Shown: piece after piece, positions 33,658-41,312 of the stretch
How positions within the stretch are numbered: position 1 is the stretch's first letter
Layout of the letters: every line of letters starts with the position of its first letter
Notes under the pieces: model-generated
Told to the model about the DNA's origin: nothing
What the model saw: the letters and a program-made list of their open reading frames with translations, nothing else
Database searches by the model: none
DNA from: Rhabdochlamydiaceae bacterium
GTDB lineage: Bacteria > Chlamydiota > Chlamydiia > Chlamydiales > Rhabdochlamydiaceae
DNA: 64,000 nucleotides
NCBI GenBank assembly: GCA_047459655.1
Contig: JAJREF010000003.1
Coordinates: forward strand, 128,001-192,000
Direction of reading: 5' to 3'
Translations under genes and position numbers: made by a program

Positions 33658-35103
33658 TTAATGCGTTCTTTGTAGCTTTTCAGGAGGCTCTCCAGATGTA
33701 TTATTTTTAGTGGTATATACATGTATAACACTTTCATGATCGACCAAATGAAGAGTATCTCCTTCAGTTGGCCTGGGGATTTCTATTTCTGTTTGTGTAC
33801 CATTCGTCGATTTGACCCTTAACCAGTAACGGTCTCTAGTAGGGAAGTAAAGGCGAGAGCGAAAAAATCGATCTGTTATTCTTACAACAGATGTTAAGCT
33901 CCTTTCTGTATGTTGAGCGTTACTTGTGTAAAATTGAAACGTGTTTTCATGTTTACCAAAATGTGGGGAGAGATTAACAAAAACAATACCTTGAAATATC
34001 GGATTATTTAAGAGTTCAGAGGCAGATAGACGAGATTCGGGGTATTTTAGCATTTCCAAAAGAAATTTTGCTATTTGGGAAAGCCTTTCCTCAGAAAATT
34101 CAAGGTTGTTTGCTCCTGCTAGCAGCCGTTCGTGTAAATTACCTTCTTCCAAATATACAGATGCCATAGCTTTGTAAGCAGTTTCTATAGCACTTTCGAT
34201 GGCTGGGTCTTGTTTAGCTTCCTTCTTCCAACTTTCCCATGTCTCAAGATTGCCAAAATATTTGTTATATTCATCTTCAATTCTTTCCCATTCTTCTACA
34301 TCAACGGCTCTAAGGGGGGGTTTAAAGCTCACTTCCCCATTCTCAATTTTGAACAGTTCCTTTGCTGGTCCTTGACAAGTTTTTAAAAATATCTCAGAAG
34401 GCATCCCAATAAGCTTGCAAATCTGATGGAGGCGTTGTGCATCTCGGATTAGAGCATGTTCCATTAACCGAGGAGAGCAAGCAGGAAACAGGGGTTCTTT
34501 TAATATAACTTCAAATAAAAGAGCCGCACTACTCCATATGTCTGATTTTGTGCCAACAGGGCTTTTTAGAATAACTTCTGGGGCTCTATATTCTGGAGCT
34601 TGACACATGTTGTAGGGTTCTCCAACTTTGCCTACACTATTAAAATCTATGACTGTTAAATCATCCGATCCTTCTGGCGCTGGCCGAAAGATCAGGTTAT
34701 CTAGCTTTAGATCTCCATGAAAATAATCTCTTTTGTGTAGTGCTTCCAAACAATCTAAAAGCTGACGTGCAATTAATGCCCAATGGTATGAAGAGAGAGT
34801 GTAAGAGGGGTTGTTCAGTAATGTTACAAGGTCTCCACCGGGGATTCTGTCTGTTACAAATCCTCTTTCAAATTCTTTTCTAAACCGAGGGATGTTTGGA
34901 ACTCCAAATGTATTAAATAAATCTAAAAGACGGGCTTCTGTAGAGATAGTGTTGAGGTGTCGAGTGTGGGCTCTTTTAATGGCAACAGGTGATCCTGTTG
35001 TTAAATCTATGGCTCCAAAGACTTCTCCATAGGCTCCCCTTCCAAGCGTGTCAGTTATTTGGTAAGTTGTTCAGATGTCCCTATTTGGCGATGATGGTTC
35101 CAT
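33658..35103 (-). CDS. Eukaryote-like protein kinase (CMGC/DYRK-like); in-frame TGA at codon 11
   Basis: Manual extension gives LGRGAYGEV and VAIK, in frame with HGDLKLDN, IDFN, QAPEYRAPEV, DIWS. AGAGGA RBS precedes the ATG at 35103. Confidence 0.85.
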
Positions 35104-35241
35104 GTTATAACGATCCTCTTTTTAATTAATCGATTTAACATGTCACATTTCATTTTTTATAAAAACTAAATAAATAAAAATTAATAAACATTTTAATTTA
35201 TATGCATTAAATAATTTCAGATATTGTAAATCTATTTCTAA

Positions 35242-35404
35242 TAGACCTCTTCGAAATTCTAATGCTCTTGGATTTGAGTTCTTTTTTCGCTAGTTGGAAG
35301 ATCGATTTGTGGGTCATATTGGGTTAATATGACCCACAAATCGATCTTCCAACTAGCGGAAAATAATCTCAAATACAGGCCATTAGAATTTCGAAAGAGG
35401 TCTA
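35242..35404. repeat. Long palindromic element (family A), 163 bp
   Basis: Termini TAGACCTCTT...AAGAGGTCTA. Perfect 33-bp central stem (35288-35320 / 35326-35358) with a 5-nt loop. Confidence 0.92.
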
Positions 35405-35490
35405 ATAGTCCTCAGGACAAGTCATTTGCCGATAGTGCGTGAAAGCTAATTGGGAAAGCACCTATTGAGAGGTCTCTTGATAGGCAAAAA

Positions 35491-36855
35491 CTATTTTACT
35501 GTTACAGGAATTAAAGAAGCAATCGCTTGAGATTGTAAAAAGCGCATGCGGAGCCAGTAAAGGACAAGGCTGCTAAAATGCATGATACTAAGAACTGTCC
35601 AGAAGAGGTCAGCTTGTATAGCGACTTTATTCATCATAAAATACATGAACAAAAAGCCGTTGATCCAGCCTATAAAGCCCATGAAAAGTGAAAATTTAGT
35701 GTCTTTAAAGGCTAGTATGTAGCTGATCGGGAGGTAACCAAAAGTAAAGAATGTAAAAGAGAGCCAAATCCCGGTAAATATTTTTTGAATATTCATGCTG
35801 CCAACGTCGATAGTAGGAAACAACCAATTGAAGGTTACATGAGGAAAGCAAAGCAAGGGAATCCCTACAATAACGATCATGATAGAGGCAAGCAAGGCTC
35901 CTGAGCGTAAAGCTTTACTTAAATAAGAAAACTTTTGAGCGCCAAGGATTTGAGACACGACAGTTGTCTGTGCTTGACAAAGCGAATCTCCTAAAAAGGA
36001 AGAAAAAGAAATAGAGTACCACCGATAGAAAGGCTTAAAAGATAATCGCTGGATTTTCCTGAAGCAAGCCTTGCAATGAATACCCAGCAGATAAAGTTTA
36101 AAATCCGATTCGCAGCTCTTAAAAGGCCTGGCTGAATGCAGTGCCAAAATAACTTGAGCTGAAGCAACCAGCGATGAGAGTCAAATAAGTTGCGATTTTT
36201 TTTGGAAAGAAATGTAATGAGCAAAAAAAGACAGAAGCCCCCTTGTGCAATAAGAGTGCTAAGAACACCACCTGTTAAACCTAGACTAGGGATCCATCCC
36301 CCCATCCAAATATAAGCAAATAAGCAAATAACAGCTTAACAAGTTGTGAAGATATAGTTGCGATTACAATAAGTAGTGTTTTCCCTTGCCCTAAGTAAAA
36401 GCATGATAAGGCTGCACCTAAAGGATATAGAAAATTAATAGCCATTAGAAAACGAGCGTAAGGAACACCCACTCCGCTAAGAGCTGTATCGCGAAAATAC
36501 AAATCACTACAGATCCACCCTATAGGAAAGACGATACACATCGATAGAATAGAAAACCAAATGAACTGCCAAATACCGGGCCCAACAGACTTGTAGTTCT
36601 GTGCTCCAATCCATCTCCCCACGTATACCTGCGCCATCATAGCAAGGGCCACGCAAGGAGCTTGGAATATTTGAGCAACATACGCTGCATTGACGGCAAC
36701 TTCCATTACTTCCTTAGATATCCGAGCAAGAAAAAGCTTTTCGATCAGCAAAAGAAGATAAGTAGAAAAACTCATAAGCAAGACAGAGAAAAAAGAGCCA
36801 ACAACTCCCCCAGCCTCCCTGTCCGACCCATGATTTGTGGCTGCGCTACATCCAT
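35491..36855 (-). CDS. MATE-family efflux transporter/flippase (frameshifted)
   Basis: About 12 hydrophobic segments. VYVGRWIGA, YLGQGKT, LLIFG.GGWIPSLGLTGG...TLIAQ and VSQILGA match MATE repeats. Confidence 0.85.
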
Positions 36856-36857
36856 TC

Positions 36858-37223
36858 TTAGTTTTGGAAAACTTTCGGATGATTAGCGCCTTTAGCACAG
36901 TGCATGATCAAATGCAATACATCATCGATAGATGCACGCGCAAAAGGTCCGCCAGTATTTCCATTTTCATAGTGCCAGCCTTCTGGGCTCAGAGTGATGA
37001 CAAAAGGTCTATGTTCTATGGTTAGATCTGGGCGAAGAAATGTAACGTAGTAGCTCATTACACTTTCTCCAGCTCTTAGCAGATAGAGATACGGGGTTTT
37101 TCTTCCTCTTAATAACTTTTCTGCGGCTAATCCAGATAGGCTTTCATGCCATGCTGGATGATCGGCTATCTCTTGCTCTATAGAGCTCAAGTAGTGGGTC
37201 TGTTCTTTCAATAAAGTAGACAT
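36858..37223 (-). CDS. Stand-alone SH2-domain-like protein, 121 aa
   Basis: AWHESLSGLAAEKLL / YLYLLRAGES / YYVTF / IEHRPF / F...SIDDVL align in order with the SH2 consensus W.HG.ISR..AE.LL / FLVRES / YSLSV / VKH..I / F.SL.EL. AGGAG RBS. Confidence 0.75.
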   Translation of the reverse strand: MSTLLKEQTHYLSSIEQEIADHPAWHESLSGLAAEKLLRGRKTPYLYLLRAGESVMSYYVTFLRPDLTIEHRPFVITLSPEGWHYENGNTGGPFARASIDDVLHLIMHCAKGANHPKVFQN

Positions 37224-37225
37224 AT

Positions 37226-40200
37226 CTAATACTCCTGTTTTTTTTTGTAACAACTTCTTGCTACGCTAAATAGCCCACAAAAAGATCTGTGAAATATATT
37301 CAAATCTTTTCTTACCAGCGCTTGGGAGGGTTGGTAAAAAATGGGGACAACTGGCATCTCTTGAGATAAGATTCCTTCCGCCTGTAATAGGTAGGAAGAT
37401 CGTTGGAAGGGGTTGACTGCATGATCACTTAAATCGAGGAGATGATGAAAAGACGGGTGTTCCCATTTCGCAAAATTAATTTTTTCACTTGCATATTTAA
37501 AAGCATTGAGCGTGTAGATAGGGTCATCAATCCAAGAGCTCCAGTGTACAAGTGCCATCTGAAAATCTCCATCAGAAAGTTTACTAAAAAGTTCTCCCCA
37601 TATTAGAGACTTAAGGTTACACTCAATGCCGAAGTAGTCCTTGAATTGTTGCTTTAAGTTAAGAGCTGTATATTCTCCAATACCCTTTTGGTAGAAAAGC
37701 AAGTTAATCGGTGGAAAAGTTTGCAGAGATAACCCCAATTCCTCTAGCGCCTCATTAAAAAGTAAGCGGGCTTTTTGTACATCATGAGCTGGAAAAAGAA
37801 CGTGGTTATCAATCGAGTGAGCGTGGTTATCAATCGAGTGAGCAGAAAGAAGAGGGGAATAAGCGGGTATCAAAGGGAGAAAAGAATTAGCAATGATCTC
37901 GGCACGGTTAATGGCAAACGCGAAAGCCTGGCGTAACTTTTTATGGGAAAATAAATGGTGCGTCGTATTAAAAACACACCAGTAGACCAAACTATTGGGA
38001 AAAGAAAGAAGAGTGTCGTCTTTTTCTGCAATATACGATGGATGCCAAGATCCAAAAGGGTTGCCAATCCAATCAATCTCTTTTTCTGAAAAGCTTGTAT
38101 GGCTTGTAGAGGAGTTACACAAGTTATAATAATTTGATCCCATGATGTATAGCGAGGATCCCAGTAAAAAGGATTACGTATTAAGTGATATCCTTGACTA
38201 GGATGATTAATTTTTAATTGGAAAGGACCGTTACATGGGTAGTTTTTTTGTGATTGAAAAGGCCACTGGGGGTGTTCTTGATCTATTAGTCTATGTACAG
38301 GAGAGTAAACAGGGTGTGCTATGAGCTGCAGAAAGTGAAGAGTGGGCCGTGCAAGAACAACTTGTAGTGTCCGATCATCAATAACGCGGATTCCTACTTG
38401 ATCCAAAGGGACCCTTCCTTCTTTTGCTTCTTTCGCATTATGAATAGGGTAAAACCAGTAAGCAAAAGAAGTTTTAAAATCAGGCGAAAGGATTTTTTTC
38501 CATGCATATTCAAAATCGTATGCAGAGATAAGCGATCCATCATTCCACTGGGAATGGCGGAGTTTAAATGTGTATTCCAGCAGATTAGGAGAGATGGTAA
38601 TAACTTCTGCAATAGCATTTTCAACGCTACCGTGCTGGTCAAGCCGTGTAAGACCTTCAAAAAGAAGCCTTAATATGTTTCCCGATCCATCATCTCCCCC
38701 GATGCGGGGATCTAGAAATAGCATCAAATGCTCCAGCCCAATCCTTAGAATTTGCTGACCTTTCATTTTTTGATGCCATTTATGGAGCGCTTCTTGCAAT
38801 GCCTGGATGAAAGCGGCCGTTTCTGTCGTTTGAGAGGATAAAAGAGCGCAGTTAAAGAAGAATCTCTCTTCTATATCGATAGTATTGTATACGATTTCCG
38901 GCAAGCGGAAGATCCCATCTCGAAGCACAGCTGAAATGACATCTCTAATAGAAGGATCTTCTCCATAAACACATAAAAAAATCCCTGCATCTTGTCGGTG
39001 AATTTTAAGAGAGTAGGGGCAATCAGAGGAGATCTGTTCAAAGCGGTTTTCAAGAAAATGAGCAAAAAGGGAAAAAAGCACGTGCTCCGGCATGAAAGCC
39101 TGTTTTTCTAAAGGAACTAATCCGTAAAAAAAAGTTTCCATTAGTTCAGGATCACAGTTTGCCAGGTCTGAGAAATTGTCTTTAAAGTGCTGAAAGAGTT
39201 CTTGTTGCTTGAGGAGAATTCCTCCATTATAATCGCGGAATTCACCAATAGCTGTGACTAGTAAGGAGACAACTTTTTTTCTTGCAGCATAGAAATCCAA
39301 AGAACCGTCTGATCTTAGTAAATTATCTGTACGTAGAAGATGGAGACGGAAAACCTGTCCTTCTACAGGGCGATTTTCAAGGTGCTTAACAGTCATTATA
39401 CGTTCAGAGACAAAAGAACAGTCGAAAAAACGCTCTTTGAGTAAAAAGCGATGGAAGGGTGTTACATATACAAGTGCAATGCGAAAAATAATTTCTTCAC
39501 CCGTCTGCTGATCGAGGGTAATGTAAGCTTGGGGAAGGTCTTGAACGGATTGAATTTCTTGGTTAAGCACGAGAATATTCTTATAAATTTCTTCCTCGTT
39601 GAGACCTCTAAAAACACCAGGGGTCAGAGACTCGATACTCTTTTTGATCTTCTTGCCCAAACTAATTTTGAGTAAATTTTGTTCTTGGAAAGAAAAAACA
39701 GAACCATCTTTTTTCTCAATCTCAAGGTAGAAGAGTTTTAGATTTTTATGTTGACCTGTATGGCAATAAGAGCTCTCTTTAACTACTCTGAACTCAGGGA
39801 GATGCTTTTGCAATGAAAGTTTGATGTTTTCTTCATCGAATAATTCATACCTGCCCATCATATTGCATCCAATGAGGCAGCCCCAAACAGGTTTCGAGAA
39901 AAGGGAAATGACAAATGCGTAGGTATCCATCTGATCTCAATGCGGCGAACGTGAGGAGCGAATGTCACTGTACGAAGTAGTTTCTTTCGTAGGAGGTGGA
40001 CCGATATAACAAGGCGAACAAGGTGGGAAACGTTACGATGATCGAGGAACTCTTTTGTTCCAAGTAAATAGAGAAGGAAGAGATCGTTTAAAATGGTGTT
40101 ATCTACAATAGCTGGAAAACGGTCCAACCATTTTTGTATTTTTTTGTAAACAAGACGAAAGCAAGGATGGAAATCGAGCAAGCATGTGTTGCCTGACATC

Positions 40201-40238
40201 TCCTGGAGAAACCCTTCATCTTGTTGTAGTACGATCAT
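37226..40238 (-). CDS. ~1000-aa fusion: unknown N-terminal region plus family-5 solute-binding (OppA-like) domain, no signal peptide (frameshifts ~39900, ~38090)
   Basis: C-half: LDPR...LFEGLTRL...YTFKLR.SQWNDG...AYDFEYAW, NGPF.L, NPFYW, KLRQAFAFAINR, AE.IL..EMPVVP. The N-half is soluble and unrecognised. Confidence 0.8.
37801..37842. repeat. Perfect 21-bp tandem duplication (AHSIDNH x2)
   Basis: CGTGGTTATCAATCGAGTGAG occurs twice in tandem. Confidence 0.9.
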
Positions 40239-40432: not shown

Positions 40433-41312
40433 CTAGCTTTGTACTAGGATGTCTTGAGGAGGATTTGGTGTGGTCGGAATATTATCTGAAGATGTTGTTG
40501 CGGCTGTGGCGTCACTTGAAGGTTTAGCTAGAGCTAATGTTAGTCTCTCACGGATTCCTGGTTCTTGAGCAAGGCTGGACAGCATTTGCACTATTTGAGT
40601 TAAAGATTGAGTGTTTTCACCTGAGGCAGTCACTTGATCTCCCAATCTCCGCGTTTCTTGAGCTATAAGAGCTCTTAATTCTTCGAGTTGTTTGGTTGTT
40701 TCTTCGAGTTGTTTGGTTGTTTCTTTATGCTTTTTCAGAGTTGCTTTGACATCTTCCCAAAGCTCTCTACTCCCATTGACTGCCGCTACAAATGCTTCCA
40801 CTTGGGGGACAAGCGAGCCTAGCTTTTCTGCAGTAGCTTGGGTGTTGTCTGCCGTTCCAGATATCTGCGTTAGTAAAGGTGTGAGTTTTGAAACTAATTC
40901 ATTAAGATCAGCGTTCGTTTTTTCCAAAGCACGATTGGTTTCTTCAAGCGTTTTAAGTTTGATGTTTTCTTGTGCGAGATAGCGAGCATACAAGAGGATA
41001 GTCAATACAAACATCCTAGCAGTTGCTAAAATAATGATTCCGAAAACAAGGCTGTAGACAACGCATGTCACTTGGTAGGCAATCGCTACCCAAAGAGTGG
41101 GGTTTCTGCGCATATCTGCTAAAATACGTGCCCTTAGGGGGAGAGTCTTCATTAGATGGAGCTGCACTTTTAAATTCGAGCACAGGTTGTGCGGCTTGAA
41201 AGACAAGGTTTGTTTTTGTGCGGGTGAGTAATAGCGCGTTATTTAATAAACCCCTTATTAGGGCAGAAGCTTGGCTTGGTGACACAGATCTTAAGTATCC
41301 TAAAGTATCCAT
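40433..41312 (-). CDS. Inc-like protein: long hydrophobic hairpin plus coiled coil (frameshift near N-terminus)
   Basis: ~38-aa hydrophobic stretch followed by heptad repeats; AGGAG RBS before the ATG at 41312; 21-bp tandem repeat at 40679-40720 (TKQLEE x2). Confidence 0.65.

Follow-up and report, generated by a model that had tools for sequence, protein, structure and literature searches.

The cassette described here joins three genes of environmental chlamydiae, encoding a fusion protein with an oligopeptide-binding (OppA-type) domain, a small protein with a predicted SH2 fold, and a transporter of the MATE family. We studied it in a 64,000-nucleotide (nt) stretch of DNA from a Rhabdochlamydiaceae bacterium, hereafter the window (G000:C3:128001-192000), which belongs to an 82%-complete genome of 5 contigs, G000. 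Sequence comparison across the phylum indicates that this is a real, conserved cassette, for which a mechanism of ligand-controlled export is plausible. Our working proposal, a tentative one that we hold with somewhat less than even confidence, is that a cytoplasmic ligand sensor is linked to the MATE pump by an SH2 adaptor acting independently of phosphorylation.

All three genes lie on the minus strand of the window, and their junctions agree exactly with the spacing given in the preliminary description of this DNA. The fusion gene (37226..40238) ends in a TAG at 37228-37226 and is followed after 2 nt by the ATG of the SH2-fold gene at 37223. That gene (36858..37223), which is intact and encodes 121 amino acids (aa), ends in a TAA at 36860-36858, again 2 nt ahead of the ATG of the MATE gene (35491..36855) at 36855. 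When whole, the fusion would comprise about 1000 aa, with an N-terminal half of predicted ACT-like structure (38761..40238) and a family-5 solute-binding domain (37226..38750), and the MATE protein about 457 aa. In the assembly the fusion is split into three open reading frames (ORFs; 39858-40238, 37870-39930 and 37226-38143) and the MATE gene likewise into three, and Pfam searches of the window ORFs found SBP_bac_5 in 2 ORF pieces and MatE in 2 pieces; the 121-aa ORF matched Pfam SH2 below threshold only (E 0.093).

Alignment to a same-genus locus placed five single-base gaps, all in homopolymer runs, at about 39898, 38082, 36790, 36299 and 35993. Two interrupt the fusion (39895..39900 and 38078..38084) and three the MATE gene (36786..36792, 36295..36301 and 35990..35997). 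Contigs of the sequencing run X1, which is possibly the source sample and hence not independent, close the breaks at 38078..38084, 36786..36792 and 36295..36301 and keep that at 35990..35997, and among the X1 contigs listed none bridges 39895..39900. X1 shares some errors with the assembly: of two breaks in the essential gene pheT, taken as a control, it closes one and keeps the other, and for this reason the retained break at 35993 says little. The assembly as a whole is rich in frameshifts, with pheT and mfd split in the window and an oppA gene and the stand-alone paralog of the fusion, discussed below, split likewise. Same-genus genomes, G001 and G002 among them, have whole genes in the same order, with fusions of 992-1014 aa and MATE proteins of 457-463 aa, and the MATE gene is a single ORF in 64 of 65 MATE-bearing loci. 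We treat the five breaks as mostly or wholly assembly error.

The preliminary description had proposed co-location in other genomes as a check on the three-gene system, and here the linkage proved to extend far beyond chance, with tight spacing in co-oriented loci. Three hundred genomes of the phylum were scored for family presence, and short, strong SH2 matches with their surrounding regions were retrieved as 75 SH2 loci, the homologs being labelled by their sources as Chlamydiales, Parachlamydiaceae and Rhabdochlamydiaceae. Of 93 SH2 matches, 15 were not counted towards the cassette type because of greater length or weaker score (more than 200 aa, or an E value higher than 1e-9), and one genome, G045, was left unscored. 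The SH2 profile was seeded from loci of family f1, so that matches in other families form the independent part of the result. The SH2 family occurs in 71 of the 300 genomes and the full fusion in at least 102, a floor set by scoring two candidates per genome. A fusion gene lies near 69 of the 75 SH2 loci and a MATE gene near 61; both are found within 6 kb in 58, and the remainder comprises 11 loci with the fusion only, 3 with MATE only and 3 with neither, several of the incomplete ones standing at a contig edge. The 58 complete loci represent 49 genomes, 10 families and three arrangements: the window order in 28 (24 genomes, 8 families), MATE on the other strand in 21 and the fusion on the other strand in 9. 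Gaps of 30 nt or less separate fusion and SH2 in 25 of the 28 window-order loci and SH2 and MATE at 19 of 22 scorable junctions, and in rearranged loci the SH2 gene sometimes points the same way as the fusion and sometimes the same way as MATE.

The pairwise identities of the three proteins co-vary (r 0.83-0.95, and 0.80-0.94 between families). For all three genes the nearest relatives of the same-genus cassette lie in families f15, f22 and f5, which points to transfer as a unit; to judge from these relationships, the cassette has apparently been swapped between chlamydial families. Within family f1, 33 of 62 genomes carry the fusion. SH2 and MATE are both present in 23 of the 33, a MATE gene located elsewhere being counted too, and both are absent from 8, and this MATE is found in none of the 29 fusion-less genomes; these genomes are related, and the count is not a statistical test. 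No fourth conserved cassette gene emerged, recurring neighbours being lineage synteny.

Several loci show copy-number variation of the cassette or of its SH2 gene. The SH2 gene is locally duplicated or triplicated in L019, L031, L059 and L096. Outside the 75 loci stand a tandem 225-aa form (L110) and short degenerate remnants at the same position (L047, L119 and L144). Genome G023 carries four complete cassettes (L025, L028, L029 and L030), and in three of its four SH2 copies the residue at betaB5 is Ser, not Arg.

That the small protein folds as an SH2 domain, as first supposed, is supported by three approaches in agreement. In a comparison of the family profile with the PDB, all 60 matches listed were SH2-containing proteins (best E 4e-5). 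The AlphaFold2 model (pLDDT 83.5) shows the SH2 elements alphaA, a three-stranded sheet and alphaB, and in Foldseek all matches listed for this model contained SH2 domains, with TMq up to 0.62. PF00017 was matched by 9 of 17 members at E up to 1, the best at 9e-6. With co-location and fold, two of the three checks that the preliminary description had set as possible refutations came out in favour of the system. The gene is under purifying selection, with nonsynonymous polymorphism (pN) of 0.15-0.18 against synonymous polymorphism (pS) of 0.52-0.56.

The suggestion that this domain reads phosphotyrosine was not supported. Phosphotyrosine binding needs the betaB5 Arg together with a basic residue at alphaA2 or betaD6 (PMC6208348). 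The window protein keeps Arg50 at betaB5 and has Gly31 at alphaA2, Gly52 at betaB7 and Pro73 at betaD6. Among 66 members, betaB5 is Arg in 44, including 25 of the 28 window-order loci, and Ser in 17; alphaA2 is basic in 1, betaD6 is basic in 1, betaB7 is Gly in 53 and betaD4 is His in 58. Only 2 of the 66 have a further basic pocket residue to go with the betaB5 Arg, and from these sequences classical phosphotyrosine reading appears unlikely. The most conserved residues are a Trp, the betaD4 His, an Asn after betaE and a Met-His-Cys motif after alphaB, represented in the window protein by Trp25, His71, Asn87 and Cys109; by their position in the canonical fold they would include the EF/BG specificity side. 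Phosphotyrosine-independent SH2 domains are known (PMC7530234). Few tyrosines of the fusion and MATE proteins are conserved as possible phosphorylation sites, and none was singled out. Chlamydial SH2 proteins unlinked to the cassette also exist, with lengths of 264-409 aa (L107:5487-6317, L109:1-794, L111:5608-6477 and L108:4847-6076), and those of L107, L109 and L111 keep both the alphaA2 and the betaB5 Arg. Retention of the alphaA2 Arg is a feature of such unlinked proteins of 260-290 aa.

The solute-binding domain of the fusion is full length, matches B. subtilis OppA (8are) at E 1e-71 and derives from chlamydial OppA. It had been proposed to sense its ligand in the cytoplasm, and the lack of an export signal is borne out across the family: a hydrophobic N-terminus is present in none of 78 fusions, against a leader and lipobox in 34 of 38 neighbouring free OppA proteins, as scored by a hydropathy and motif rule of our own rather than by SignalP. 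In classical OppA an Arg/Asp pair clamps the termini of the peptide. This clamp is replaced in the fusion, where LLHWHSWV aligns with RMGWLGDF of B. subtilis; Trp occupies the position of the clamp Asp in 54 of 79 OppA domains from fusions and in 23 of 39 from free chlamydial proteins, and most of the free OppA proteins in the neighbourhood likewise lack the pair. Inspection of the window ORFs upheld the absence of a permease or ATPase gene near the fusion, and Opp-type permeases are present elsewhere in G000. That no permease gene adjoins the fusion was discarded as proof that the protein works in the cytoplasm, since the free oppA genes of G000 are unlinked as well. Within the OppA domain of the window, an in-frame 21-nt tandem duplication (about 37801-37842) is absent from the same-genus protein of L019 and is not contradicted by the X1 contigs.

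The preliminary description called the protein an OppA-like sensor fusion; the OppA-type fusion is confirmed, and the N-terminal half, which had been left unidentified, is now predicted to be ACT-like. Pfam and NCBIfam gave no match to this half, and profile matches of its family in the PDB were to designed repeat proteins only and were rejected as chance. The fusion family comprises 288 clusters at 90% identity, or 874 representatives at E 0.001, and the N-terminal family occurs in 265 of the 300 genomes and in none of the 29 of family f20. The N-terminal half also occurs alone, as a protein of 640-670 aa. The secondary structure of a stand-alone homolog, modelled at pLDDT 91.6, displays four tandem ACT-like units under the ACT*-like topology criterion of PMC8175468; the window fusion covers units 2-4, the first having been lost. 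The best Foldseek match of the N-terminal model was large glutamate dehydrogenase (E 2e-6, with a low global TMq of 0.12). In VIA, unit 1 matched ACT domains and unit 3 matched large glutamate dehydrogenase at Z 6.6-7.2, values that are modest and graded as common by the tool, with root-mean-square deviations of 2.1-3.6 over 73-104 residues. In the ESM Atlas the family approached GDH-ACT (glutamate dehydrogenase) and GlnD clusters with scores of 0.76-0.86, at the level of a lead, and profile comparison among the four units detected no mutual sequence likeness. The N-terminus is predicted to consist of tandem ACT-like folds resembling large glutamate dehydrogenase. A 576-aa ESM Atlas cluster near the stand-alone protein is labelled mostly candidate division WOR-3 and is a possible non-chlamydial relative or a mislabelling.

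The N-terminal half of the fusion descends from a gene linked to aspartokinase. In 26 of 27 loci, and likewise in G000 (G000:C1:536746-539263; loci L032-L038 and L152-L171), the stand-alone gene lies directly behind the gene of an aspartokinase of 254-287 aa that has no ACT domains, and the pair is possibly a split enzyme whose regulatory part acts in trans. A FastTree tree, weak in its deep branches, requires one change from the stand-alone to the fused form. The earliest-branching fusions adjoin free oppA genes, and some carry two OppA domains; linkage to SH2 and MATE appears in a later clade, by about 10 changes. The most conserved ACT-like unit, with 25 positions at 85% or more, is common to fused and stand-alone forms. 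Tandem double-OppA fusions of about 1700 aa stand beside further free oppA genes at L039:5534-10609 and L147:5980-11190.

The third gene encodes what by sequence is a full-length MATE-type transporter of about 450 aa with two repeats. Both PF01554 MatE repeats score above cut-off in the window pieces, and the MATE profile matches only MATE structures. The chlamydial proteins form a separate subfamily, 2 of 3 tested members falling below the TIGR00797 cut-off. In three family f22 genomes a lantibiotic-dehydratase-like gene faces the MATE gene of fusion-MATE loci without SH2 (L051:9788-12820, L117:8970-12020 and L118:1485-4547, with a Pfam match for L051 and L117); this gene may point to a substrate that is a modified peptide, or its position may simply be local synteny.

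In the mechanism that we propose, the signal-less ACT-like/OppA fusion would sense a peptide- or amino-acid-type ligand in the cytoplasm. Ligand binding would close the OppA domain, and the ACT* units might relay the change. The SH2-fold adaptor would pass the state of the sensor to MATE without phosphorylation, presumably binding through its EF/BG specificity face, where its most conserved residues would lie, and the pump would then export a compound. Because no helix-turn-helix DNA-binding domain was matched by Pfam or NCBIfam in whole fusions, such control would be post-translational. The first ligand candidate would be a peptide imported by the unlinked Opp permease. The proposal builds on the linkage, the domain architecture, the lack of an export signal in the hydropathy screen and the degraded phosphotyrosine pocket, which are observed, and on predicted SH2 and ACT*-like folds. 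In its fullest form, which we regard as a shade more doubtful than the basic proposal, a binding protein of the import type, now facing the cytoplasm and combined with ACT-like folds, would switch an exporter on or off post-translationally through a phosphotyrosine-independent SH2 domain, in a cassette that spreads between families and may control the release of a host-active small molecule.

A number of observations weigh against this proposal. Related MATE proteins are much more widespread than the fusion, occurring in 178 of the 300 genomes (E 1e-40). Of the 119 fusions placed on the tree, 38 lack both SH2 and MATE within 3.5 kb. Among the 58 complete loci, 30 have one gene on the opposite strand, so that a single transcript is not required. 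SH2 was undetected in fusion-MATE loci including L044, L045, L051, L115, L117, L118, L121, L126 and L140, and the gene is dispensable in some loci. The genomes in which co-variation and co-occurrence were tallied are related, so that few events (10 changes) may lie behind both, and linkage alone cannot tell physical coupling from shared regulation. Because the OppA domain lacks the classical peptide clamp, it is uncertain that the ligand is a peptide. The ACT-like assignment, finally, comes from predicted structure, with a global TM of 0.12, VIA scores at the common level and no sequence likeness between units.

An alternative is a transporter fed by its neighbour, in which the fusion is an inside-out binding protein that hands a cytoplasmic compound to MATE, with SH2 as a stabilising subunit that is optional. 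The usual role of family-5 domains is to supply a transporter with cargo, the fusion is followed directly by MATE, without SH2, in several loci, and the tightest co-variation of identities is that between fusion and MATE (r 0.94-0.96). The earliest-branching fusions, however, adjoin free oppA genes without MATE, and the predicted ACT-like units suggest allostery; we consider direct delivery unlikely, though the most credible of the alternatives. Somewhat less probable still is that the fusion has kept its ancestral job, its ACT-like units serving as trans-acting regulators of the ACT-less aspartokinase, or of some other enzyme, in response to the OppA ligand, with SH2 and MATE linked by a shared metabolic state and not by contact. 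The near-invariant position of the stand-alone homolog behind aspartokinase, the conserved unit common to both forms and the many fusions without SH2 or MATE argue for such a role, but no aspartokinase recurs in the neighbourhood of fusion loci, the first ACT-like unit has been lost from the window-type fusion, and the SH2 gene that almost always abuts the fusion is left unexplained.

The SH2 protein could instead be a type III secreted host-cell effector, expressed together with a pump through which a small molecule reaches the host. Most Legionella SH2 proteins are translocated, among them some that do not bind phosphotyrosine (PMC6208348), the local SH2 duplications resemble effector expansion, and candidate effector genes flank the window locus. 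We judge this improbable given that only 3 of the 75 SH2 loci, one of them at a contig end, lack both partners nearby, that the spacing to an inner-membrane pump gene is near zero, and that the chlamydial SH2 proteins keeping the alphaA2 Arg are unlinked to the cassette; that no longer proteins containing this SH2 were scored is weak evidence in the same direction. Classical SH2 binding within the bacterium, to a phosphotyrosine of the fusion or of MATE, would account for the retained betaB5 Arg and betaD4 His. It is very unlikely in view of the scarcity of basic residues at alphaA2 and betaD6, the prevailing Gly at betaB7, the two-residue rule of PMC6208348, and the finding of no bacterial-type tyrosine kinase above cut-off in the 82%-complete G000. 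Least of all do we favour the absence of any functional unit, with hitch-hiking genes or a locus decaying in this strain. The five frame breaks of the window, one kept in X1, might suggest this, yet the linkage survives three arrangements and 10 families, and the breaks fall in homopolymer runs, affect essential genes likewise and are missing from intact relatives.

The surroundings of the cassette in the window hold three further features. A Ser/Thr kinase gene, apparently split, flanks it at 33658-35030; the adjacent kinase ORF (33658-34749) was rejected as a part of the cassette, having no match in 14 related loci. On the other side lies a coiled-coil, Inc-like gene (40433-41206). Just downstream of the MATE gene, a palindromic element of about 170 nt (35238-35408), resembling a miniature inverted-repeat transposable element, has relatives at about a dozen sites of the genome. 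A promoter and terminator scan gave nothing usable.

The cassette is apparently undescribed. The combination was not recognised from any described pathway when first noted, and in the literature searched, mainly at the level of abstracts and with few subscription papers, we found no account of it and no description of the fusion or of the aspartokinase pair. The main text of a phylum-wide study (PMC9816063) does not contain "SH2" or "MATE", and its supplements may list the genes as unnamed families. Bacterial SH2 domains have been described as borrowed, mostly secreted Legionella effectors (PMC6208348, PMC7530234), and confident ones almost only in Legionellales (PMC6208348). An SH2 family without a phosphotyrosine pocket, in a cassette of ten families, offers a test of an SH2 role without phosphotyrosine and of internal bacterial use. 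The parent gene, in turn, is present in most sampled chlamydial families, paired with an aspartokinase that has no ACT domains of its own. Study of the system could reveal how symbionts living inside cells sense peptides from the host and control export; if the proposed mechanism is true, a metabolite inside the bacterium is likely to govern an exporter by way of a domain familiar chiefly from the signalling of eukaryotes.

Among known systems, the closest in working is SgrR/SetA. SgrR of E. coli and DsvR of V. cholerae are cytoplasmic regulators with a C-terminal SBP_bac_5 domain, and SgrR controls the SetA efflux pump (bioRxiv 10.64898/2026.04.01.715812). The shared design is a non-exported family-5 domain that follows an output part at the N-terminus and is associated with an efflux pump, a precedent that we count in favour of the sensor-adaptor proposal. 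Unlike SgrR, the fusion has predicted ACT-like units and not a helix-turn-helix as its output, and its binding domain comes from chlamydial OppA; the pump here is a MATE protein, and an SH2-fold gene is included. The N-terminal segment of large NAD-dependent glutamate dehydrogenase contains ACT*1-3 with helical motifs (PDB 7jsr, 7a1d; PMC8175468). Compared with that enzyme, the fusion has no catalytic domain, a PAS unit was not seen, identity is 6-13%, and the ACT-like units are joined to OppA or stand free beside an ACT-less aspartokinase. The union of ACT-like units with a cytoplasmic OppA domain is a new domain architecture.

The cassette also departs from the defining features of OppA and of phosphotyrosine-reading SH2 domains. 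With the OppA of OppABCDF, an importer that takes up peptidoglycan peptides in C. trachomatis (PMC9928106), the fusion has the full-length family-5 domain in common, but it lacks the signal peptide and lipobox, a linked permease and the Arg/Asp pair. The chlamydial MATE proteins share a full-length profile match with known transporters (TIGR00797; Aquifex Aq128, B. halodurans BH2163 and NorM), but form a separate subfamily with dedicated soluble partner genes. With the Legionella effectors LeSH, RavO and DoSH (PMC6208348) and with eukaryotic SH2 domains (PF00017), the cassette protein shares the SH2 fold and, in two thirds of members, the betaB5 Arg. It differs from them in lacking the second basic pocket residue in 64 of 66 members, in its own Asn and Met-His-Cys motif, and in being encoded inside a transporter cassette.

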